Part shown: positions 13,492 through 44,207 of the stretch, in pieces
How positions within the stretch are numbered: the first letter of the stretch is position 1
How the letters are laid out: every line of letters starts with the position of its first letter
Source: an uncultured Acidobacteriota bacterium
GTDB taxonomy: Bacteria > Acidobacteriota > UBA6911
Direction of reading: 5' to 3'
Assembly (NCBI GenBank): GCA_963843575.1
Contig: CAWJKZ010000015.1
Span: 251,911 to 315,910, forward strand
Length of the DNA stretch: 64,000 nucleotides
Position numbers and translations under genes: made by a program
Notes under the pieces: generated by a model
Database searches by the model: none
What the model was told of the DNA's origin: nothing
Seen by the model: the letters and a program-made list of their open reading frames with translations, nothing else

Positions 13492-13880
13492 GAACAAGTG
13501 GGTCCGGGCTTCAGCCCGGACGTCTTTTGATCTGATCTATGTGGCGACGGGCGCACGCTATAGCGACCGCAAACGCGTCCGGGCTGAAGAGGCTGTCCAA
13601 CGATTGAAGCACCCGCCCCGCCCGCACAACAAGTGGGTCCGGGCTTCAGCCCGGACGTCTTAGATCTGATCTAAGTGGTGGCGGGCGCACGTTACAGCGA
13701 CCGCAAACCGCGTCCGGGCTGAAGAGGCTGTCCAACGATTGAAGCACCCGCCCCGCCCGCACAACAAGTGGGTCCGGGCTTCAGCCCGGACGTCTTTAGA
13801 TCTGATCTATGTGGTGGCGGGCGCACGTTATAGCGACCGCAAAGCGCGTCCGGGCTGAAGCCCGGACCCACTTGTTGTGC
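13492..13880. repeat. REP/REPIN cluster: about 3 tandem units of ~135 bp
   Basis: AAGTGGGTCCGGGCTTCAGCCCGGAC at 13496, 13631, 13766; inverted copy at 13848-13873; half-REPs at 13577 and 13712 fused to GAGGCTGTCCAACGATTGA. Confidence 0.9.
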
Positions 13881-26084: not shown

Positions 26085-28009
26085 ATGACCCTTTTTCGCG
26101 TCGTCGGGCTGCTGACCGCGCTCGCCCTTCCGGGCTGGACTTTCTGCCGGCCCGGTCCCCCGATCTGAGGCTCCCCGCCATCCTCGGCGACGGCGCCGTG
26201 CTTCAGCGCGGCATCCCCGTGCCCGTCTGGGGATGGGCCGCCCCGGGGACCCGCGTGGAGGCGCTGCTGGCACGGCCAGACGAAGACCGCCGTCGCCGCG
26301 CCGGATGGGAGGTGGCGGCTTTCGTTCGAGCCGATGGAGGCGGGAGCGCTCGGGGACATGACGGTGCGTGCCGGCAAACAGGTCGTCACGGTCAGGGACC
26401 TGCTGGCCGGAGAAGTCTGGGTCTGCTCCGGGCAGTCCAACATGCAGATGAGCGTGGCGGCGTCGCTCGGCGCCGAGGAGGAGCTCCCCCGGGCGGGCGA
26501 CTGCGCAGCTGCGGCTTTTCAAGATCGCCAGGATCGCCTCCGCCGCGCCCGTGCAGGACGTCAGGGGACGCTGGCAGCACTCCGGGCCGTCGAGCGCGGC
26601 GGATTTCTCGGCCGTGGGCTACTACTTCGGCCGGGAGCTGCGCCGCAGGTTGAAGATCCCTGTCGGCCTGATCATGGCGGCCTGGGGCGGCACCACCGCG
26701 GAGGTCTGGACCGACCCGGCCTCGCTTGCCGCCGACGGCGAGTTCGCGCCCATCCTGCGCCGCTGGAACGAGCGGCTCACGCGCAATCCCGAAGTGCTGC
26801 GGGACGATCTCCCGTTCAGGCTCGAGATCGACGCCATGGAGCTTGTGCGGCCCGACGGATCGCGCCTGGCACTTTCGGGACAGGCGGGGATGGCGGCCTG
26901 GGATCCGCCCGAGTTTGGCGACTCGTCGCGCGCCACGATCAGCCGAGGCTCCCGAGCCATTTTCTCGGGTTCCCTTGGGATCGCCGAATCGGCGAGCGTC
27001 CTGCGTCGACTTGGGCGGCGCGGAGCTCACCGGCTATTCCAGCCCTGCGGCTGCGTGCGCGAGGACAAGGGGCGTTTTCTCTGCAGCTCCGGCAGCCCTC
27101 TGTCGTCGACGGTGCCTGGCACGCGGTGCCCTCGTTTTTCGCAAGGCCGGACTGGACCGAGTACACGTTTCGACTGGCCGATTTCGTGCAGCCGTCCTGG
27201 GGCGAGCAGAAGCCGCTGACGCTGGATCGGATCACCGGCGTCGCGCTCTGCGTCGAGTCCGCCATGGCCGTCCCCGAGCAACCGTCGTCGCTCTTCAACT
27301 GTCCATGCTGATGCCGGTCATCCCCCACGCGATCCGGGGTGCGCTCTGGTACCAGGGGGAGGGGAATGCCGGACGTGCGTATCAGTACCGTCGCCTGCTG
27401 CCGGCGCTGATCGGCGGGTGGAGGCGCGCGTGGGGCCAGGGCGATTTCCCGTTCTACATCGTCCAGCTGCCCGGCTACGGGCCGGTCAGCGAAAACGCCG
27501 AGCAGAGCGAATGGGCCGAACTGAGAGAGGCGCAGGCCGCCGCCCTCGCATTGCCGAACACCGGGCTCGTCTGCACCATCGACCTGGGAGAACCCCGGAA
27601 CGTGCACCCGCGCAACAAGAGCGAGGTCGGGGTGCGGCTGTACCAGCTCGCCCTGGCGAGGACGTACGGCATCGACGTCGAGTACGCCGGCCCGAGGTTC
27701 CTATCCGCAAAAGCGGAAGGGAACCGGATGCGCGTGCAGTTCGCCGATATCGGGACGGGGCTGAAGTCGATCGACGGCGGGCCGCTGCGCGGATTCGCCG
27801 TCGCGGGGGAGGATCGCGCCTTCCACAAGGCGACCGCGCTGATCGACGGCGACACCGTCGTCGTCGAAAGCCCGGAAGTGCCCGAGCCGATCTCCGTCCG
27901 CTATGCCTGGGCAGCGAGCCCATCATGCAACCTGGCCGGCGCCAACGGCATGCCCGCATGGCCCTTCCGCTCCGACACCTGGCCCGGCAAGACCGATACG
28001 GCCAGATGA
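26085..28009 (+). CDS. Sialate O-acetylesterase with inserted CIA30/CBM11-like domain; multiple frameshifts
   Basis: LPAILGDGAVLQRG, GEVWVCSGQSNM, FSAVGYYFG, AWGGT, WYQGEGNA, VQLPGY, VHPRNK, VRYAW found across several frames. Confidence 0.8.
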
Positions 28010-32460: not shown

Positions 32461-32703
32461 AAGTGGGTCCGGGCTTCAGCCCGGACGCCGTTTGCGGTCG
32501 CTATCGAGCGCAACTGTTGCTGAATAGGGCAGACCTAAAGACGTCCGGGCTGAAGAGGCTGTCCAACGGTTGAACCACCCGCTCTGCCCGTAAGACAAGT
32601 GGGTCCGGGCTTCAGCCCGGACGTCTTTTGCAGTAGCTGTAAAGTGCATCTGTCACGATATGCAACGGCTTTAAAAGCGTCCGGGCTGAAGCCCGGACCC
32701 ACT
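32461..32703. repeat. REP/REPIN cluster
   Basis: REP+ at 32461 and 32597; half REP at 32543-32554 fused to GAGGCTGTCCAACGGTTGA (32555-32573); inverted REP at 32679-32703. Confidence 0.9.
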
Positions 32704-33734: not shown

Positions 33735-35634
33735 TCACACCTTGTCGGCGGGTATGACCAGGACCGGACGATCCGCCCGCGCCGCCACGTCGAGCATCAC
33801 CTCGTTGTGCTCCAGGAAGGATTTCAGACGAGGGCTGTAGCTTCCGATCACGATCAGGTCGTGCTCGGCCGCCTGCTCCAGTATGCCGGCGGCCGGCGTC
33901 GTGGCGCGTCGGACGAGCGCGTTGGCTTCGATATCGACGGCTCGCATGCTCGCCACCGCCCGGTCGAGGTGCTGGCGCATCAACGTTTCGGTGTCGTTCT
34001 GCCCGACACTGGCGTGGAAGAGTGTCACCGACGCGCCGAGGCGCCGCGCAATCCTGCCCCCCTCGATCACGTTGCGCTTGCCGGGCTCGCCCACGGCGGT
34101 GCAGATCATCATCTTCTCGATCCTGACTTTCGTCCCCTTGATCAGCAGCACCGGGACATCCGCGTGCTGCAGCACCGAGATCACGGTCGGGCCCAACTGC
34201 CTGGTCTTGGCCCGTGACCTCCAGGCCCGGCACCTTGGCCATCCGGGCGGCAGCGCCGCCGTGACGGGGCGGCAGCGCCAGCATCACCATTTCGTAGAGC
34301 GACTCGGACCAGCTCGGCCGCCATCTGCTCGGTGGGATCGCCGTAGCGCGCGTGCCACTGGGCGCTGCGCAGCGCCGATTCCCTTTGCGATCGCAGCGAA
34401 CCAGCCCGGAGGGCCCCCGCCCGATTCGGGGGCGGGCGCGATCCCGAGCACCGTCACCGAGGCCTGCAGCCGTTCCGCGAAGTGGCAGGCCACCTCCAGC
34501 GATGCGGGGTCCTCGCCCGCCGGGTGGTACAGCACACGGCGCGCGGCCTTCTTCAGGATGGTCCAGCCGGACAGGGACGTCCACACGGGATCGCCGGTCA
34601 GCCTTGTATCGGGCGGCAACGTGGCGTCGACGAGCAGCCCTTCCTCGCCGAAAGCGAGGGCCGGAGCCACCTGGCGCGTTCCCGGCAGATGGGGGAGCCT
34701 GAGCCTGACGCGACGGCACGAACCGGCGAAGCTCTCTTCCACCAGGTTCCCCATGCCCAGGACAGGCGTGCCGGCGGGCGGAATCGGGATCCCGCAATCA
34801 CCTGCTCGGGGCGGACAAGGAGCAGGACCCTCGCCCCGTCTTCGTGGGGATTGTCCGGCGGTATGGGCAAGCCGCAAGGGATCCGAAGCGCGCCTCCCCT
34901 GCCTCGGCCCGCCCCACGATCAGGGTCCCGGCCCCGAGAAACGAGGCCGTGTAGAGCGTCGACGGGCAGCGGTACAGCTCTTCGGCAGATCCGACTTCAA
35001 TCAGCCGGCCGCGTTCGAGAACACCGATGCGGTCCGCCAGTTCGAATGCCTCGTCCTGATCGTGCGTCACCAGGATGGTGGTCACCCCGAGGCGCTGCTG
35101 GATTTCCTTCAGGTTCCTCCGGAGCTGGCCCCGTATCTTGACGTCGAGGGCACCAAACGGCTCGTCGAGCAGCAGGACCTTCGGCTTGTGTGCGAGCGCG
35201 CGGGCCAGGGCGATGCGCTGCTGCTGCCCGCCGGACAGCTGGTGAGCGTAGCGGTTGCCGAGGCCCGCCAGCCCTACCATGTCCAGGAGTTCCTCGCAGC
35301 GGAGTCTGCGCTCCCGCTTCGGGACCTTGCGAATCGCCAGGCTGAACTCGATGTTCTCGATCACGCTCATGTGCCTGAAGATCGAGTAGTTCTGGAAGAC
35401 GAACCCGGTCCCGCGCTCCTGGGGCGGCAAGGCCGTGACGTCGCGGCCGTGCAGCAGGATTCGGCCCTTCGTCGGCTCCGTCAAGCCCGCGATGATCCGC
35501 AGGATCGTGCTTTTTCCCCCTCCGCTCGGACCCAGCAGCACGAACAGTTCGCCATCCCGCACTTCCAGCGAGACGTTGTCGACGACCCAGAGGCTGCCGT
35601 AGGATTTGGCCACGTTCTCGATGACGATTGACAC
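33735..35634 (-). CDS. cysA: Sulfate/thiosulfate ABC transporter ATP-binding protein fused to tandem USP domains (frameshifted)
   Basis: Walker A GPSGGGKS, FQNY Q-loop, LSGGQQQR, LLLDEPFGALD, VTHDQDEA. C-terminal USP1 (RRVLYHPAG...AERLQASVTVLG...GDPTEQ...VLQHADVPVLLIK) and USP2 (MMICTAVGE...ARRLGASVTLFH...HDLIVIGS...ADRPVLVIP). Fusion inferred across frameshifts at about 34200-34870. Confidence 0.75.
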
Positions 35635-35685
35635 TCTCGGGTCCCCTGCTGTCTACTTTCGCTTCCTGGAACTGACGTCACGGGT

Positions 35686-37136
35686 TCAGAAAGCCACTTG
35701 AATCCGGCTCAGCACCACGCCAAAACCGCGCTCCCCTTTCCGCGGCGCTCGCGCCGGGTCACCGAACCGCTCCCAGCCGAAATCGAGCATGTAGCGGACG
35801 TAGCGGTTGAGATACCAGTTCGGACCGAAGTATAACGTCTCGGCCCGGTTGTTTTTCACGCTTCCATCCGAGATCTGCAGGCTGGCATAGCGGACCTTCA
35901 GCTCCCACGCGCCGAAGCCGGGCCGAGCGCCGTCGCGGGTGAAAAGCTCGTGGCGCGGCACCACGGCCCCCGCCTCCGATTTGGTTTCCCCCGTCAAGAG
36001 CCAGGTGGCCTGGGCCATCCAGCCTTTGGCGACGACCCCGGGGAGATTCGCCCCGGCCGGGCCGAGGCCGTCGCGCCGCTGGTTGGTCTGATCGTATTCC
36101 GCGCGGATGGTAGCCGGGCCGAGGAGCCAGGTGAACTCGCCGTTGGCCCGGTTGTACCTGCCGTTCAGGGTATCGGGGGTAAAGAAAGAGGCGCTGCGGC
36201 TCTCCGTCTGACCGCGCACTCCCACGCCGCCGACGCTGCGGCCGCTCGTCCCGGCGCCGCCGAAAATCAACCCCCTGGCCCAGAACGATCCCGTGTGTTT
36301 CCACGGGGAGAAGCGCAGCCTCAGCGCGCTCTCCGGCGTGCCGTTGTTGTTGGGCGCGAGCAGCCCTTTGCCGTTGAACAGCCCGGCCTGGTACTCGAAC
36401 ACTCCCTTGCCGAATACCCCGGTTACCGCCATGCCCGGGCTGCGGCTCGGCGCGAGGTTGTTGACCAGCGAGCGTTCGACGAAGTCCTGGACGCTGTCGG
36501 AACGGAGTTCCTCCTGGCTGAACGGCATCTTGAACTGACCGAAACGGAACTGCAGCTGGTCGGCGCGTCGTATGTTGACGTAGAAATCGCGCAGGAGCGT
36601 GCTGCCGGTGTCGGCGAAGTCACCTTCGAGCTTGTATTCGTAATAGCGCTGCAGCCTCCCCTCCACGCTCAGACGGGCTCGCCTGACCAGGAAGGTGTTC
36701 GGCGGATGCTCGCCCGCCTGGTAGCCGCGGAAGTCGAGCTGGCCGTAACCCGCGATCTGGGTTTCGAAGCTGCCGTCCCCGTTCCGGATGAAGGCGTGGC
36801 TGTCGTTCCAGCCCGCGGATCCCTCGCGTTTCCCCTCGGGCTGCGACACGGCCCGGGGAGGTTCTGGCAGGCTGCCGCCAGCGGTTTGTTCCCCGTCTGA
36901 CCGGGTCGCGGCGGCGGAGGCGGGCACCGTGCGTTCGAGCGCGTCGATGCGCTTCTGCATCTCGGCGATCGCGCGTTGTTGTCGCTCGACCGTGCTTTGC
37001 AGTTGCTCGATCAAAGACACGCAGCGCCGGTCCGTCGACGCTAGCGCCCGCCGGCGTCCTGAGCCTGCGCCCGGCTGGCATGCGACAGAAGTAGAAAGAG
37101 GATTGCGGCCGTCAGCAGCAAAGTTCGCGAGTTCAA
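35686..37136 (-). CDS. OprO/OprP family anion-selective porin (frameshift after the signal peptide)
   Basis: AAAGGAG RBS and TTG start give signal MNSRTLLLTAAILFLLLSHASRAQA; coiled coil; FLVRRARL, GQFKMPFSQE, VERS, GAWELKVRY, GPNWYLN; C-terminal QVAF. Confidence 0.85.
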
Positions 37137-37209
37137 GCACTCTCCTTTCAGGACGCGGATGCGCGCGGATCCCCGCGGATCGACCTGGCGACAGGCCGGT
37201 CCGGCGTTT

Positions 37210-38067
37210 TCAAAGCCTTTCGGCACGCTTCCTGACGATCTCGATGGCCATGAGAAGGACGAAGGACAAGGCTGCGAGAGCGATGGCCATCGCGTAGGCG
37301 CCGGTGTAGTTGCGGTCGTCCAGCGAGCGCAGAATGTACAGGGTCGACGTTTCGGTGCTGCGGCTGACCCCGCCGCTCACGACCAGCACGGCGCCGATCT
37401 CGCCAAGGGCCCGGGCGAAGGTCAGCGAGATGCCGTACAGCAACCCCCAACGGATGGCAGGCAGGGTGACGCGGCGGAAAGTCTGCCACGAGCTGGCACC
37501 CAGGGTGCGGGCCGCATCCTCGTGATCCCGGCTCACCTGCTCCAGGACGGGCATCACTTCACGGACAACGAAGGGAAAAGAGATGAAAATCGTCGCCATC
37601 AGGATGCCCGGCCAGGCGAAGACGACCTTGATCCCCGTGCGTTTCAACACGGGATCGAACCAGCCGCCGGCGCCGAACAGCAGGATCAGCATGAAGCCCG
37701 CGATTACCGGGGAGACGGCGAAAGGCAGGTCGACGAGTCCATTGAGCAACCGTTTGCCGTGGAAATCGTCGCGCACGAGGACCCAGGCCACACACATCCC
37801 GAGGATGGTGTTGACGGCCACCGAGCCGAGGGCGATCAGCAGGGTCAGCTGAAACGAACTCGCCGCGTCATAGGATTTCAGTTCGCGCACGAAGGCCGGG
37901 AGGCCGCTGGACAGGGCACCCCAGAAGATTGCCGCCAGGGGCCCCAGCAGCAGCACCCCGGCATAAACTGCGGCCGTCGCGATCAGGGCGCCGCGGACGA
38001 GCGCCTGGCGCGAAACCTCCGGCCTCCGCCTCACGGCGGGCAGGTTCTCCGGCGTGCGCCCGTTCAT
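37210..38067 (-). CDS. cysW: Sulfate ABC transporter permease CysW
   Basis: LVDLPFAVSPVIAG, PFVVREVMPVL, EDAARTLGAS, ARALGEIGAVLVVSG; ATGA overlap with cysT. Confidence 0.9.
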   Translation of the reverse strand: MNGRTPENLPAVRRRPEVSRQALVRGALIATAAVYAGVLLLGPLAAIFWGALSSGLPAFVRELKSYDAASSFQLTLLIALGSVAVNTILGMCVAWVLVRDDFHGKRLLNGLVDLPFAVSPVIAGFMLILLFGAGGWFDPVLKRTGIKVVFAWPGILMATIFISFPFVVREVMPVLEQVSRDHEDAARTLGASSWQTFRRVTLPAIRWGLLYGISLTFARALGEIGAVLVVSGGVSRSTETSTLYILRSLDDRNYTGAYAMAIALAALSFVLLMAIEIVRKRAERL

Positions 38068-38900
38068 CCTTTCCTCCCCGCAACCCGCTGGAGGCGGTCG
38101 ACGGCCAGCATCAGGGCGAAAGACATGAGCAGCAGGACGACCGAGACGGCGCTCGCGCCCCGGGGGTTCTGCGACTCGATCTGGCCGTAGACGTATACCG
38201 GGGCCGTCAACGTTTTCATGGGGATGTTCCCCCCGACCACGACGATCGAGCCGAACTCGCCGAGCGCCCGCGCAAAGCTCAGGAGCGAACCGGTCAGCAT
38301 GGCCGGCCGGATCCAGGGGAAGACGATCCGCCGGAAGGTGGTCCACTGGGAGGCGCCGAGGGTCCAGGCCGCCTCCTCCTGCTGCCGCTCGGCTTCCATC
38401 AGGACCGGCTGAACCGCGCGCACGACAAACGGGTAGGTGACGACAAGCAGGGCGAGGATGATCCCAGGCGTGGCGAAAATGACCTGGATCCCGTGCCCGG
38501 CGAGCCACGCCCCCACGGTGCGTTGCGGGCCGTAAAGCGCCACGAGCATTACTCCTGTGACCATCGTGGGGATGGCAAACGGGACGTCGACCAGTCCGTT
38601 CAGCAGCACGCGCCCGGCAAACTCGTACCGCACGAGCACGAATGCCGTGAGGGTCCCCATGACGGTGTTGATCAGCGTGACGGCCAGCGCTGCCGCGACC
38701 GTCAGTCTGAGCGCGGCCCAGGCAGACGGTTCCGTCAGTTCGTTCCAGAACGCGTCGAGCCCCCCTTCCAGCCCCTTGTGGAAGACCGCGGCCAGGGGCA
38801 GGGCAATAATCAATCCCAGGTAGACGACCGCGGTGAAGCGCAATCCGAGGCGCGACGGGGAGGCTCCGCCCCGCCAGAGGTTTTCCGCCACAGCGCTCAC
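38064..38900 (-). CDS. cysT: Sulfate ABC transporter permease CysT
   Basis: VLVRYEFAG, DVPFAIPTMVTG, PFVVRAVQPVL, EEAAWTLGAS, ARALGEFGSIVVVGGNIP; GTGA overlap with sbp. Confidence 0.9.
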   Translation of the reverse strand: MSAVAENLWRGGASPSRLGLRFTAVVYLGLIIALPLAAVFHKGLEGGLDAFWNELTEPSAWAALRLTVAAALAVTLINTVMGTLTAFVLVRYEFAGRVLLNGLVDVPFAIPTMVTGVMLVALYGPQRTVGAWLAGHGIQVIFATPGIILALLVVTYPFVVRAVQPVLMEAERQQEEAAWTLGASQWTTFRRIVFPWIRPAMLTGSLLSFARALGEFGSIVVVGGNIPMKTLTAPVYVYGQIESQNPRGASAVSVVLLLMSFALMLAVDRLQRVAGRKG

Positions 38901-39976
38901 CGGGACCTCCGGATTTCCCCGACCGCCCTGCTGTATGCCCCGTCGGCCCCGTATATCTCCGTGCTCACCTGTTTCCATCCGCCGAGAAAATCGATCTTCC
39001 ACAGATCTTCCACGGGCGGATACAGGGCCTTGCTCTCCTCGGCGGCATTCGGATCGATGGGCCTCAGACCGTATTTCGCATAGATCCGCTGGGCCTCCAG
39101 GCTGCAAAGGAAATTGACGAAGTCCTCCGCGGCCTCACGGGTGCCGTGGTCGTCGACGTACTTGTCGATCAGCGCCACCGGGTTCTCGATCAGGATCGTC
39201 GAGCGCGGGATCGCGTATTCGTAGGTCTGACCCGCCTGCCGGCCGACGAGCACCTCGTTCTCGTAGGTGATGGCGACGTCGCCGACCCCCTTTTCGAAGT
39301 TGGTGATCGATTCGCGCGCTCCCTTGTCCAGGATGGAGACGTTGGCGAAGATACGTTTGAGGAGTTGCTGCGCCGCGGCGCGGTCGCCTTTCGGGGTGCC
39401 CGCGTAGCCGCGCAGGGCGGCACCGTAGATGGCGTTGATGTTCCACTGCGCGCCGCCCGAGGTCTTAGGGTCGGGCGTGAGGATGTTGAGGCCCGGCCGC
39501 GTGAGATCCGGCCAGTCAAGAATGTTGAGCGGGTTCCCCCGCCGGACCGCGATGACCACGATCGAGGTGCTCACCATGCCGCGCGACGGGTTCGCGCGCC
39601 AGTCGTGCGTGATCAGGCCGGCTTCCGCGATCCTGTCGATGTCGGCCTCGAGCGAGAGCGCGGCGATGTCGGCTTCGAATCCGGCGATGATCGCCCGGGA
39701 CTGCGCGCCACTCCCCTGGTAGGACTCCCGGAACTCGACGTCCTTTCCGGTCTTCCCCTTCCAGAACTTCTGGAAAGCCGGGATGATCGCCTTGCCGTAA
39801 GCCTCGCGCGGCGTCGTGTACCCTCCCAGGGTCAGGGTGACGGAGTCGCGACCCGTGGTGCGCGAACCCGAGCAGCCTGCAAACGCCATGGGGAGAATGA
39901 ACAGAAAGGCCATAACGGCCGGCCGCAGCCAGAGCAGAAAAGGCCTGGCGACGATGCGCCTGTACTTCTCGGTCAT
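38897..39976 (-). CDS. sbp: Sulfate ABC transporter substrate-binding protein (probable lipoprotein)
   Basis: SYQGSGAQSRAIIAGFEADIAAL, VRRGNP, TPDPKTSGGAQW, GDVAITYENE, ILIENPVA, FLGGW; lipobox-like FAGC. Confidence 0.9.
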   Translation of the reverse strand: MTEKYRRIVARPFLLWLRPAVMAFLFILPMAFAGCSGSRTTGRDSVTLTLGGYTTPREAYGKAIIPAFQKFWKGKTGKDVEFRESYQGSGAQSRAIIAGFEADIAALSLEADIDRIAEAGLITHDWRANPSRGMVSTSIVVIAVRRGNPLNILDWPDLTRPGLNILTPDPKTSGGAQWNINAIYGAALRGYAGTPKGDRAAAQQLLKRIFANVSILDKGARESITNFEKGVGDVAITYENEVLVGRQAGQTYEYAIPRSTILIENPVALIDKYVDDHGTREAAEDFVNFLCSLEAQRIYAKYGLRPIDPNAAEESKALYPPVEDLWKIDFLGGWKQVSTEIYGADGAYSRAVGEIRRSR

Positions 39977-40048
39977 GGAGGAGCCTTTCTCGCTGCGCTC
40001 CGCGCTGGGAACGCTCCTGTGACGAGTTGACCGGGATCCGCCTGCGGC

Positions 40049-40083
40049 AAAAAAAGGAGCACCGGGTGCCCCCGGGCTTCTCC
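40049..40083 (-). terminator. Intrinsic terminator in the riboswitch expression platform
   Basis: Minus strand GGAGAAGCCCGGG-GGCA-CCCGGTGCTCC-TTTTTTT, located between the aptamer and the sbp start. Confidence 0.7.
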
Positions 40084-40105
40084 TGAGGCTCGCGCGTCGC
40101 GAATG

Positions 40106-40256
40106 CCCTTCCCATGTGCCTGCGAGGTTAGCTGACGGACTCGGGCTGGAAGTACCCTACACAGCCGTTGGCTGCGATACGCCCCAGACTCTGCCTGAAT
40201 GCAGAGCGACGGTTCCCCCGCGTTGCTCGTCCTGCTGCGAGCAACTTCAGCAGACA
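40106..40256 (-). ncRNA. c-di-AMP riboswitch (ydaO/yuaA class)
   Basis: Minus strand GCTGAA-[hairpin GTTGCTCG..CGAGCAAC]-GCGGGGGAACC-[hairpin]-GGGGCGTATC-[hairpin]-GTAGGGTACTTCCAGCCCGAGTCCGTCAGCTAACCTCGCAGGC..GGGAAGG matches the ydaO-yuaA consensus blocks in order. Confidence 0.9.
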
Positions 40257-40265
40257 GCTGTCATG

Positions 40266-40294
40266 ATGCTAAACGGGGCAATCCGGTTTGTCAA
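40266..40294 (-). promoter_or_regulatory. sigma70 promoter of the riboswitch/sulfate ABC operon
   Basis: Minus strand TTGACA-N17-TAGCAT, ending a few nt before the aptamer. Confidence 0.75.
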
Positions 40295-40298
40295 CGAC

Positions 40299-40567
40299 AG
40301 TGGGCCCGGGCTGAATAGGCTGTCCAACGGTTGAACCACCCGCCCTGCCGCAAAACAAGTGGGTCCGGGCTTCAGCCCGGACGTCTTTTGATCTGATCTA
40401 TTTGGCGGCGGGCGCACGTTATAGCGACCGCAGACAGGGTCCGGGCTTCAGAGGCTGTCCAACGGTTGATTGTGAAGTGCGGCGCCGAGGCGCCGCACTC
40501 CAGATTAATTCAGTTCGTCCTGATTGAACGTCAACCGTTGGACAGCCTCTGAAGGCCGGACCCACTT
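40299..40567. repeat. REP/REPIN cluster containing a MITE
   Basis: Half REP at 40299-40315 + TAGGCTGTCCAACGGTTGA; REP+ at 40357-40382; split REP around 40451-40549. Confidence 0.9.
40451..40549. mobile_element. 99-bp MITE-like element with 19-bp perfect terminal inverted repeats, inserted in a REP loop
   Basis: GAGGCTGTCCAACGGTTGA ... TCAACCGTTGGACAGCCTC, flanked by GGGTCCGGGCTTCA and TGAAGGCCGGACCCACTT; internal hairpin AGTGCGGCGCC-GA-GGCGCCGCACT. Confidence 0.75.
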
Positions 40568-40591: not shown

Positions 40592-42964
40592 CTAATAGGC
40601 CGAGGTGGGCGCCGGACTGCCAATCCTGGAGTATTCGACGCGGGCCTGCAGCAGGATCGGGAGGTCCGGGTCCGCCGCCTGCAACAGGGCGAACAGACGC
40701 TGATAGGACTCCTTGCTCTTGGCCAGCTCTCCCGAGAGCCGCCTCGCCTTTGAGACCCCCAGTTGCGCCAGGATGTAGATTGGAGAGAACGGATCCTCCC
40801 CGCTCCTGCGCTCGAGCACTTTCCGGAACTCCCCTTCGGCTTTCGAGCCTGCACCCTGCGCAAGGTAAGCCTCGCCGGCGAGGTAAGGCGGCCACAGCGC
40901 TGCCGACAGTTTCCCCCCACCGATCGTGTTGAGGATCGCCAGGGCTTCGGTGGGATCTCCGCTGCGGATCTGGACCATGGCCCGGATCAACGGGACGTGG
41001 ACAGACTGGATCATGGTATGGTCCGGATACGACTTGGCAAGCTGTTCGGCCAGGGCCCGGGCCCTCGCCGCCTCGCCGCACAGGGCCTCGGCCTGGGCAT
41101 TTCTCACCATGACCAGCCAGCTCCGGGTGTCGTGGATCGCCCCGAGGTACTCGCGCGCCTTTGGGCAATTGCCGAACAGGGCCTCGGTGCGTGCGGCGTC
41201 GGCGACGAGCGCGGCGGCCATTTCAGGCATATTCCGGTTTTGCGCAACCTCGATCGCGCGCTGCTGGAAGGCGCGCGCCTCGCGCAGATGGCCGCGCGAG
41301 GCGGCGGCGGCCGCCTGCAGGGCAAGCATCGAGTATTCATCGGGTTGGCCGGCAGCCTTTTCAGCCTGCGCCGTCATGCCGGCACGGTCGCCTTCGAGGA
41401 ACGCGACCGTGTAGGCGAGGGCGCGCAGATCGCGGTTGTCCAGGCCCTGCGCGCGCGCCTGCGCGATGGTCTCTTTCGCCTCCGGCAGCCGGTTCAGCCG
41501 CAGATAGACGCAGGCCAGCTGCGGATAGGCGTTTGAGTGCCGGCTGATTCGGATCGCCGCGCGGAAGCAATCCACGGCCTTCTCCAGCTGGCCGGCATCC
41601 GCGTAGCGTCCCCCGAGCGTGTTGTGCACCGGTGCGTTGCGGGGGTAGATCGCCCGCATCAGCTCCAGCACCTCGATGGCCTTGTTGGCGTCTCCGGTGG
41701 CGAACGTGTGGTAGATCGCCTCGATCGACAACCGCTCGTATTCGCTGACCCGGTCCCGCAGGGAATAGGCTCTGCTCGCGCTTTGCGCGGCGAGGTCGGG
41801 CCTTCCCGTGTAGCTGTAACACCAGGCGATGTCGTCGTAGGCGCTGGCAAAGTTCGGGTCGGACTCCAGCGCGTGCTCGTAGTAGGGGAGCGCTTCCGCC
41901 ATGTGCCCGGACAACAGCTGCCTTCTCCCAAGCGAATAGGCCTTGAACGCTTCAAGGGACGCCGTGGTGGCCTGCTCGAGCGGGACGTCGAACTTCTCGA
42001 TCGAAGCGACGGATTCCCCCAGCCCCTTCCGGATATTGGTCGCAACCCTGCCGAGAGTCCGCAGCACTTCTTCCTTGGTGACCGCTTCGAACTGTTCCCG
42101 GACGATCACATCCCCGGTTTGCGCGTTGAGCGCTTCGAGTGAGATCACGTACTCCCGCCCGAGCTTCGAGATCGAACCGGCCAGCAGGGCCTTGATGCCG
42201 CGGCGCAGGCAGATTTCGCGTCCCGCTTCCCGCGTCATTGGTTCGTTCGGGGAACGTCCCATATACGCGAGAGTCTCGCGGGCACGCTCGTCCGAGTAAA
42301 TGTTCAGGAACGGTGTCTGCGCGAGGTGCACCGCCAGGGCCTGCTTCAGCGTGTCGTCGAAGACAGGGTCCCCGGTCGTGTTGACGAAGTCGGCCAGGAG
42401 AATGGCATCGGCCTCGGTAAGAGCCGGCCGCCGCCACTGCAGGTAGAACACGAGCAGCGCGATTGCGGCGAGCGTAGCCGCCCCGGTGGTCAGATACGTC
42501 CGCCGGTTGCTGGCGCGGGGGCTGACGGCCGGCGGCTCGGGCCTCTCTTCGGCAGGGCCAACCTGCACGACCGGCGCAATGAGCCGGTAGCCGCGCCGGG
42601 GGATGGTCTGAATGAACTGCGGCTGCCTGGCCTGGTCCCCGAAGGACTTGCGCAGCTCGGAAACCGAGTACGTCAACACGTCTTCCGTGACGAACGTCCC
42701 CGGCCAGACCGCGCGCAGGATCTCCTGCCGTGGCATCACGCGCCCCGGGTTCCCGGCGAGAAAGACGAGCACCTCCATGACCTTCGGTTCTATCTGGATC
42801 TTCTTGTCGCGGCAGGAAATAAGGTTAAGGTCGCGCTCGACCAGCCACTCTCCGATTCGAAAGGCGTCGCCCACTGGTTTGCTCCTCGGAAATTCGACCT
42901 CTCGCGATAGGGGGGCATGATGGGTCGAGAAAAGTTCACGAAGGCACAAGGGGGACAGGACCAT
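40592..42964 (-). CDS. Membrane-anchored winged-helix (OmpR/CadC-type) regulator with extracytoplasmic TPR domain
   Basis: IEPKVMEVLVFLA...VWPGTFVTEDVLTYSVSELRKSFGD...IQTIPRRGYRL; one TM; ILLADFVNTTGDPVFDDTL; TTASLEAFKAY; TPRs. Exact start uncertain. Confidence 0.9.
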   Translation of the reverse strand: MVLSPLCLRELFSTHHAPLSREVEFPRSKPVGDAFRIGEWLVERDLNLISCRDKKIQIEPKVMEVLVFLAGNPGRVMPRQEILRAVWPGTFVTEDVLTYSVSELRKSFGDQARQPQFIQTIPRRGYRLIAPVVQVGPAEERPEPPAVSPRASNRRTYLTTGAATLAAIALLVFYLQWRRPALTEADAILLADFVNTTGDPVFDDTLKQALAVHLAQTPFLNIYSDERARETLAYMGRSPNEPMTREAGREICLRRGIKALLAGSISKLGREYVISLEALNAQTGDVIVREQFEAVTKEEVLRTLGRVATNIRKGLGESVASIEKFDVPLEQATTASLEAFKAYSLGRRQLLSGHMAEALPYYEHALESDPNFASAYDDIAWCYSYTGRPDLAAQSASRAYSLRDRVSEYERLSIEAIYHTFATGDANKAIEVLELMRAIYPRNAPVHNTLGGRYADAGQLEKAVDCFRAAIRISRHSNAYPQLACVYLRLNRLPEAKETIAQARAQGLDNRDLRALAYTVAFLEGDRAGMTAQAEKAAGQPDEYSMLALQAAAAASRGHLREARAFQQRAIEVAQNRNMPEMAAALVADAARTEALFGNCPKAREYLGAIHDTRSWLVMVRNAQAEALCGEAARARALAEQLAKSYPDHTMIQSVHVPLIRAMVQIRSGDPTEALAILNTIGGGKLSAALWPPYLAGEAYLAQGAGSKAEGEFRKVLERRSGEDPFSPIYILAQLGVSKARRLSGELAKSKESYQRLFALLQAADPDLPILLQARVEYSRIGSPAPTSAY

Positions 42965-44120: not shown

Positions 44121-44207
44121 AAGTGGGTCCGGGCTTCAGCCCGGACGCAGTTTGCGGTCGCTATCGAGTCGATCAAAAGACGTCCGGGCTGAAGCCCGGA
44201 CCCACTT
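44121..44207. repeat. REPIN (inverted REP doublet)
   Basis: AAGTGGGTCCGGGCTTCAGCCCGGAC at 44121-44146 and its reverse complement at 44182-44207. Confidence 0.9.

Follow-up and report, generated by a model that had tools for sequence, protein, structure and literature searches.

We report an RNA of the cyclic di-adenosine monophosphate (c-di-AMP) riboswitch class in the 5' leader of an operon for sulfate import, carried on the minus strand of a 64-kb stretch of DNA (here called the window: positions 251,911 to 315,910 of contig CAWJKZ010000015.1, assembly GCA_963843575.1) from an uncultured Acidobacteriota bacterium of the GTDB lineage UBA6911. The operon encodes a periplasmic sulfate/thiosulfate-binding protein, Sbp, the permeases CysT and CysW, an anion-selective porin and a CysA ATPase of the ATP-binding cassette (ABC) type which is fused to two universal stress protein (USP) domains. 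Judged from its sequence, the RNA before sbp is, by family membership, a genuine c-di-AMP riboswitch aptamer. With a probability of roughly 80%, resting on sequence and on analogy with characterised members of the class, we take it to regulate what would be an envelope-spanning sulfate import operon.

Signalling by c-di-AMP governs potassium, compatible-solute and cell-wall functions, and no anion- or sulfur-uptake system appears among the riboswitch targets listed in the accessible part of a review of the field (PMC7266159). A full-text literature search found no paper that connects either the ydaO riboswitch or c-di-AMP with the ABC transport of sulfate or with a CysA-USP fusion, and no published account of the pairing of sbp with a ydaO aptamer, though early gene-association tables or other supplementary tables could list it. 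Regulation of this operon would bring the acquisition of anions and sulfur into the c-di-AMP regulon in a soil phylum, the Acidobacteriota, that is abundant and little studied, and, in a genome of soil type, would tie an osmotic second messenger to the uptake of anions and sulfur. The module of riboswitch, sbp, cysTW, porin and cysA-USP also offers concrete RNAs and proteins for study, with a loop in the second USP domain and a conserved leader helix as further leads.

An aptamer of the c-di-AMP class precedes sbp

An earlier note on this DNA, made from the letters alone, had read a complete ydaO/yuaA aptamer at this site, and the covariance model of the class bears this out: a cmscan search against Rfam matched RF00379 on the minus strand at 40102-40262 over model positions 1-134 of 134, with 68.6 bits against a gathering score of 38 and an E value of 8.3e-14. 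No other Rfam family reaches its gathering score in the window, and this is the sole RF00379 match in the genome, an assembly of 6.68 Mb in 27 contigs that is estimated to be 88% complete. The surrounding layout is compact, with four nucleotides between the end of the promoter's -10 hexamer and the aptamer match, the terminator about 20 nucleotides downstream of the aptamer and the start of sbp 126 nucleotides downstream, all on the same strand.

The structure is supported independently of the model. When 22 of 25 sbp-linked aptamers were folded jointly with RNAalifold (L045, which has a long insertion, L006 and the truncated L025 were left out), the helices of the family were recovered de novo, and 17 of the 31 pairs showed compensatory double changes.

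The pairing recurs within an Acidobacteriota lineage

Surveys of relatives show that the aptamer-sbp pairing recurs. Ten of 61 related genomes, the window's own included, carry RF00379, with 12 matches between them, and six of these precede sbp (in the window's genome and in G001, a sister species of the same genus, G045, G047, G049 and G051); the remainder precede Band_7/SPFH genes (four), an amino-acid-permease-type transporter (one) and a peptidoglycan-binding protein (one). A search that started from Sbp, in contigs from a one-genome-per-species collection, yielded 80 sbp loci. At 21 of these RF00379 matches ahead of sbp, on its strand, with scores of 44.6-80.2 bits, and a contig end truncates one of the 21; G001, G045 and G049, already counted, account for three of them. 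Thirteen of the 21 records are labelled Blastocatellia and the others Acidobacteriota or Acidobacteria, Candidatus Onstottus and, in two cases, 'Clostridia', but all 21, these two among them, encode an Acidobacteriota-type Sbp. No aptamer was found at any Planctomycetota sbp locus among the 80. In an even sample of the phylum the aptamer occurs in 22 of 151 genomes (27 matches), and only two matches precede sbp, those of the window's genome and of G183; about a dozen of the others precede open reading frames (ORFs) of APC-type or Kup-like transporters, as judged from translations without a Pfam scan. Within the window's GTDB class, 8 of 116 genomes carry the aptamer. The link between aptamer and sbp is lineage-restricted and recurs in at least 25 genomes; it is a module of an Acidobacteriota lineage and no one-off.

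The riboswitch also co-occurs with a porin gene embedded in the operon. Across the 21 riboswitch loci, cysW is followed by a porin homologue in 13, by a porin fragment and then cysA in one, directly by cysA in three and by an unrelated 379-residue ORF in one, while in three the contig ends. The 59 loci that lack the aptamer have a porin in only two cases (one at 35% identity, the other without an upstream flank), and in 48 of them cysA directly follows cysW.

Two further observations came from these surveys. Five loci from the window's GTDB family or class (L009, L011, L012, L013 and L116) have aptamers of 42-55 bits before a conserved gene for a Band_7/SPFH membrane protein, whose open frames run off the loci and give lengths of at least 445-470 residues; such a gene is not among the usual c-di-AMP riboswitch targets in the accessible part of the review (PMC7266159). 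Separately, two sbp loci are preceded by Acido-Lenti-1 RNA matches in convergent pairs, and two further loci have tRNA-Sec genes in their vicinity (the four sets of matches being L016 1759-1936, L075 1619-1834, L044 6-101 and L092 1467-1562).

A sulfate importer in a genome with c-di-AMP enzymes

The gene order given in the earlier note, sbp-cysT-cysW-porin-cysA on the minus strand, holds, save that the last gene turns out to encode a CysA-USP-USP fusion. The coordinates and family matches of the genes are collected in the table below, together with those of the leader elements. Sbp has, by eye, a lipoprotein-like N-terminus, and its matches in the PDB are to 5um2 (4e-61), 1sbp (2e-58) and SubI of Mycobacterium tuberculosis, 6ddn (1e-54). 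In the alignment it keeps S45, S130, G131, G132 and A173 (1SBP numbering) and has W192 replaced by Y, as in SubI; these six we take to be the sulfate-contacting residues of 1SBP. CysW scores 296.6 bits against its equivalog model TIGR02140, under the cut-off of 329.1, and is assigned at the level of the subfamily. The gene directly upstream of the leader on the same strand (40592-42964) encodes a 790-residue protein that combines a winged-helix Trans_reg_C domain with numerous TPR repeats. As a part of the module it was ruled out, being syntenic only in the same-genus locus, one of the 80 sbp loci.

Table 1. Features of the sulfate import operon and its leader, in window coordinates
Feature	Positions	Strand	Support
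Sigma-70-type promoter	40266-40294	minus	TTGACA 40294-40289, 17-nucleotide spacer, TAGCAT 40271-40266
c-di-AMP (ydaO/yuaA-class) riboswitch aptamer	40102-40262	minus	RF00379 match, full model
Post-aptamer strand (40108-40099) and possible distal partner (40041-40033)	40033-40108	minus	Pairing by eye; encloses the terminator hairpin
Intrinsic terminator	40049-40084	minus	GC-rich hairpin about 40084-40056, then U7 40055-40049
sbp, periplasmic sulfate/thiosulfate-binding protein	38897-39976	minus	TIGR00971, 229.9 bits (cut-off 155.5); PF13531
cysT, permease	about 38064-38900	minus	TIGR02139, 286.6 bits (cut-off 246.1); putative GTG start near 38900
cysW, permease	37210-38067	minus	TIGR00969 subfamily, 298 bits (cut-off 240); ATG at 38067 overlaps the cysT stop
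Anion-selective OprO/OprP-type porin gene (Porin_O_P)	35686-37140	minus	PF07396, 142.2 bits (cut-off 20.9)
cysA fused to two USP domains	33735-35634	minus	ABC_tran 126.7 bits and Usp 30.1 bits, on ORF pieces

The rest of the genome supplies both sides of the proposed link. A DAC-domain cyclase, on whose presence the earlier note had made its proposal depend, is encoded by a single gene (PF02457, 144.8 bits) of the CdaA type, with CdaA_N and DAC domains, flanked by folP, which was read from its translation, and by a YbbR/CdaR-like gene; a gene with the seven-transmembrane HD architecture of PgpH encodes a PgpH-like phosphodiesterase. The diderm host which that note had supposed is likewise in keeping with the assignment to the Acidobacteriota and with the porin in the operon. 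ATP sulfurylase and PAPS (3'-phosphoadenosine 5'-phosphosulfate) reductase are encoded on other contigs. No second Sbp homologue and no SulP were found, absences that are not proven since the genome is 88% complete. The genome's single c-di-AMP aptamer hence stands before its single recognisable Sbp-type sulfate importer. Because this is the sole Sbp, no SulP was found, ATP sulfurylase and PAPS reductase are present and the pocket residues of Sbp are kept, the operon is most simply read, from sequence, as the cell's assimilatory sulfate importer. On the same grounds we found no support for the suggestion, made in the earlier note, that the system supplies a counter-anion rather than serving sulfur nutrition.

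A CysA ATPase fused to two USP domains

The earlier note had extended cysA to position 33735. The CysA ATPase is indeed there, but the gene is a CysA-USP-USP fusion interrupted by frame breaks in this assembly, and both points had been missed. The CysA piece, a truncated ORF of 278 residues, scores 319.6 bits against TIGR00968, under the cut-off of 342.75. Intact orthologues in relatives are 622-630 residues long and comprise the ABC domain, the CysA C-terminal domain and two USP domains. Both USP halves match PF00582, the first at 26.5 and 29.5 bits in two relatives, and the two halves of the G001 protein score 17.4 and 21.7 bits. An AlphaFold model of the G001 protein (predicted local distance difference test score 84, predicted template modelling score 0.77) shows two extra alpha/beta domains and has CysA, 1z47, as its best match in the PDB.

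The fusion is present in all nine riboswitch-bearing genomes examined, but it is no strict partner of the riboswitch, an idea that was ruled out since the fusion also occurs without the aptamer. G064 and G065 have it beside an sbp that lacks the aptamer, as, to go by coordinates, G071 and G072 probably do too, and in four riboswitch-less sbp operons with the fusion (L023, L028, L032 and L036) no upstream match to RF00379 was found even at E values up to 1. Three sbp operons of Pyrinomonadaceae type have a plain CysA. In all, 40 protein clusters with the fusion were collected, 36 of them full-length at 612-644 residues; of the few with a named organism, one is labelled Anaerolineae and the rest Blastocatellia or Acidobacteria.

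Among these 40 proteins the beta1-alpha1 loop of the second USP domain, LICTAxGEPGK (about residues 507-517 in G001), is at least 90% conserved. In KdpD's USP domain the corresponding loop holds a c-di-AMP motif, (A/G/C)-x-S-x-S-x2-N-(Y/F), according to the accessible part of the report (PMC8214093). That motif is absent from the consensus of both USP domains across the 40 proteins, as is the ATP motif of UspFG-type proteins, G-x2-G-x9-G-(S/T), from the proteins themselves; most second USP domains have a partial G-x-H-G (GSYS in G001) with no conserved G-(S/T) nine residues on. The LICTAxGEPGK loop may be a new ligand site.

The leader outside the aptamer

The promoter described in the earlier note, TTGACA-N17-TAGCAT, is present. 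A scan for this pattern found one site where 0.7 +/- 1.2 were expected, a count that is not significant by itself because 0.7 sites are expected. In G001, both hexamers are identical and their spacing is kept, with 4 of the 17 spacer bases differing, and the sequence further upstream diverges.

The hairpin and U7 tract that the same note had read as a terminator after the aptamer are also there, with a pair probability of 0.98 for the inner stem; what escaped it is that the hairpin is not kept in the sister species. The hairpin sequence occurs only once in the window and nowhere else in the genome, which rules out that it was copied from the 13-mer repeat that abounds in the window. That repeat, GAAGCCCGGACCC, is a side observation in its own right: it has 14 occurrences in intergenic clusters of the window against 0.77 expected (13500-13869, 32465-32700, 40361-40563, 44125-44203, 53095 and 54073), often within a palindromic hairpin, and the family looks dispersed and like repetitive extragenic palindromes. 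One of the clusters is found immediately upstream of the promoter of the riboswitch.

Many related leaders have, at the equivalent place after the aptamer, a GC-rich hairpin and then a U-rich tract, the hairpins being unrelated in sequence. In one subgroup of 11 (L021, L022, L024, L027, L031, L037, L040, L045, L050, L052 and L078), a long-range helix between the strand directly 3' of the aptamer and a segment beyond the terminator-like hairpin is predicted in every leader, and in seven of them none of 50 shuffles pairs as well; the helix is invariant in sequence within the subgroup and shows no covariation there. The pairing of 40108-40099 with 40041-40033, seen by eye in the window and not picked out by the duplex search, may be the window's version of this helix.

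Frame breaks in this assembly

Comparison with the intact 630-residue orthologue of G001 placed five frame-breaking insertions in cysA-USP within 660 bp, at about 34876/5 (+2), 34790/89 (+2), 34388 (+1), 34308 (+1) and 34214 (+1). By comparison with its G001 orthologue, the porin has its signal peptide (about 37136-37044) in a different frame from the rest. Protein-level frame tracking showed that unrelated genes of the window are also frame-split against G001, among them genes for ATP-grasp, Fer4 and TPR proteins and one 659-residue ORF that lies in five pieces (sites about 26150-28006, 30890, 31820, 46980 and 52375). A count at the nucleotide level was set aside as too noisy at about 80% identity: it yielded 167 gaps of a length not divisible by three. 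Among public sequencing runs none of RNA was listed as containing this DNA, and contigs of two DNA runs, sharing 0.08 and 0.05 of sampled words, cross none of the five cysA-USP sites.

Since unrelated genes of the window are frame-split too, we judge it likelier that the breaks are consensus indel errors of a long-contig assembly than that they are real decay, a reading of the sequence that we hold with fair though far from full assurance. Frequent errors of this kind may also explain the completeness estimate of 88%.

Discussion

The reading we prefer is that the operon is controlled by c-di-AMP through its leader. Transcription would start at the TTGACA/TAGCAT promoter, and the nascent aptamer would sample the c-di-AMP made by CdaA. 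By analogy with characterised members of the class, binding of the ligand would favour the hairpin-U7 terminator, so that at high c-di-AMP the one high-affinity sulfate importer that can be recognised in the cell would be expressed less. This importer consists of a lipoprotein Sbp, the permeases CysT and CysW, an anion porin and, as its ATPase, CysA with two C-terminal USP domains. Of the steps in this scheme, the binding of c-di-AMP by this RNA, the coupling of aptamer to terminator and the physiological reason for the link are ones that we infer. The OFF polarity is likewise taken from the precedent of the family, because no coupling was found in the window's leader.

Several findings weigh against this reading. 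To our knowledge, the uptake of sulfate is not an established part of c-di-AMP physiology. Being a 30-nucleotide insertion that G001 lacks, the terminator hairpin is not the expression platform ancestral to the genus. Thermodynamic folds of the window's leader, whether of the whole or stepwise, showed neither an antiterminator nor any coupling between aptamer and terminator, and the terminator formed in every one of them; in the duplex search the best partner of the post-aptamer strand was no better than that of 35 of 50 shuffles. Finally, the last 3.4 kb of the operon hold six frame breaks, five in cysA-USP and one in the porin, and if these are real the operon is decaying in this genome.

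The last of these points bears on the alternative that survives best, namely that the locus is a relic in which porin and cysA-USP are true pseudogenes, the inserted hairpin-U7 is a constitutive stop and nothing is regulated in this genome. The crowding of five breaks into 660 bp, together with a lineage-specific terminator whose coupling to the aptamer went undetected, is what such a relic would look like. It is nonetheless improbable, though it deserves more credit than the other alternatives: the splitting of unrelated window genes points to consensus indel errors, there is no break in the promoter, aptamer, sbp, cysT or cysW, whose identity to G001 is 83-89%, and the operon holds the genome's only sbp.

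Less probable again is a reversed polarity, in which binding of c-di-AMP releases the post-aptamer strand as an antiterminator and so switches sulfate uptake on. In L020, L030, L040 and L004 the post-aptamer strand is complementary to an arm of the terminator, a classical antiterminator layout that could work either way; by eye, the CCGCG of this strand could pair instead with the CGCGG segment of the aptamer, and no fold of the window's leader shows which state the ligand would favour. Against this, the same layout, AAGGGCA/UGCCCUUUU, also occurs in L120, before an APC-family transporter ORF of the phylum which is named by sequence motifs only and is probably of potassium type, and there repression by c-di-AMP is expected. 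Moreover, we know of no ON-acting member of this riboswitch class.

That the sbp-linked aptamers have changed specificity, to sense adenosine 5'-phosphosulfate, PAPS or adenosine 3',5'-bisphosphate as a direct feedback on sulfate uptake, is very improbable: the gene context is atypical for the class, and position N of the core GGGGCG-N-AUC (about 40178 in the window) holds a pyrimidine in 19 of the 24 sbp-linked aptamers compared with 9 of the 32 others from Acidobacteriota, but there is no sign of a ligand change, because no column of a MAFFT alignment of these 24 and 32 aptamers is at least 80% conserved in each group yet differs between them, and because the pyrimidine also occurs in leaders before Kup-like or APC-type transporter ORFs (L128, L135 and L137, the ORFs being classed from translations without a Pfam scan), while the c-di-AMP model scores the sbp-linked aptamers, at 60-80 bits, as high as standard members.

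Control by the riboswitch might be joined by a second tier, in which the tandem USP domains form a new receptor for c-di-AMP or adenine nucleotides that gates the CysA ATPase. We regard this extension as doubtful. Were it true, it would mirror the control by riboswitch plus protein of potassium and osmolyte importers in Firmicutes, and a divalent anion importer with its own outer-membrane porin would join the regulon of turgor and ion homeostasis.

Comparison with known systems

In its transport genes the operon resembles the Sbp/SubI-CysTWA importers, such as those of Salmonella typhimurium (1SBP) and M. tuberculosis (SubI, 6ddn), with Sbp, CysT, CysW and CysA in the canonical order. It differs from them in the riboswitch, in the porin gene between cysW and cysA and in the two USP domains on CysA. 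Importers of this kind are classically under protein regulators of sulfur status.

The USP domains recall KdpD of Staphylococcus aureus, whose USP domain is a c-di-AMP receptor according to the accessible parts of two reports (PMC4686210, PMC8214093): in both, a USP domain is attached to a protein that controls ion transport, in an organism that makes c-di-AMP. As far as those parts allow the comparison, CysA-USP differs in lacking the KdpD and ATP motifs, in having the LICTAxGEPGK loop of its own and in occurring also where there is no riboswitch.

In the kdpFABC operon of Bacillus thuringiensis, as the accessible part of its report describes (PMC6488665), a c-di-AMP riboswitch likewise stands over all the genes of an ion importer that is driven by ATP and has high affinity. 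The cargo of Kdp is an osmoregulatory cation, whereas that of the system in the window would be an oxyanion nutrient, and the window's operon also has a porin for the outer membrane and an ATPase fused to USP domains.

The RNA itself belongs with the ydaO/kimA class, represented by ydaO/kimA and ktrAB of Bacillus subtilis and by the riboswitch of Corynebacterium glutamicum nlpC (PMC9960051, as far as accessible), with which it shares the architecture and core of the aptamer, the position in a 5' leader, the terminator and a CdaA-type cyclase in the host. It departs from that class in its target, a sulfate ABC importer, in its host, a diderm member of the Acidobacteriota, and in the extra conserved long-range helix of related leaders. 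What we describe is a known riboswitch class wired to a new kind of target, a real and conserved arrangement to which the operon adds a porin, a USP-fused ATPase and a leader helix.

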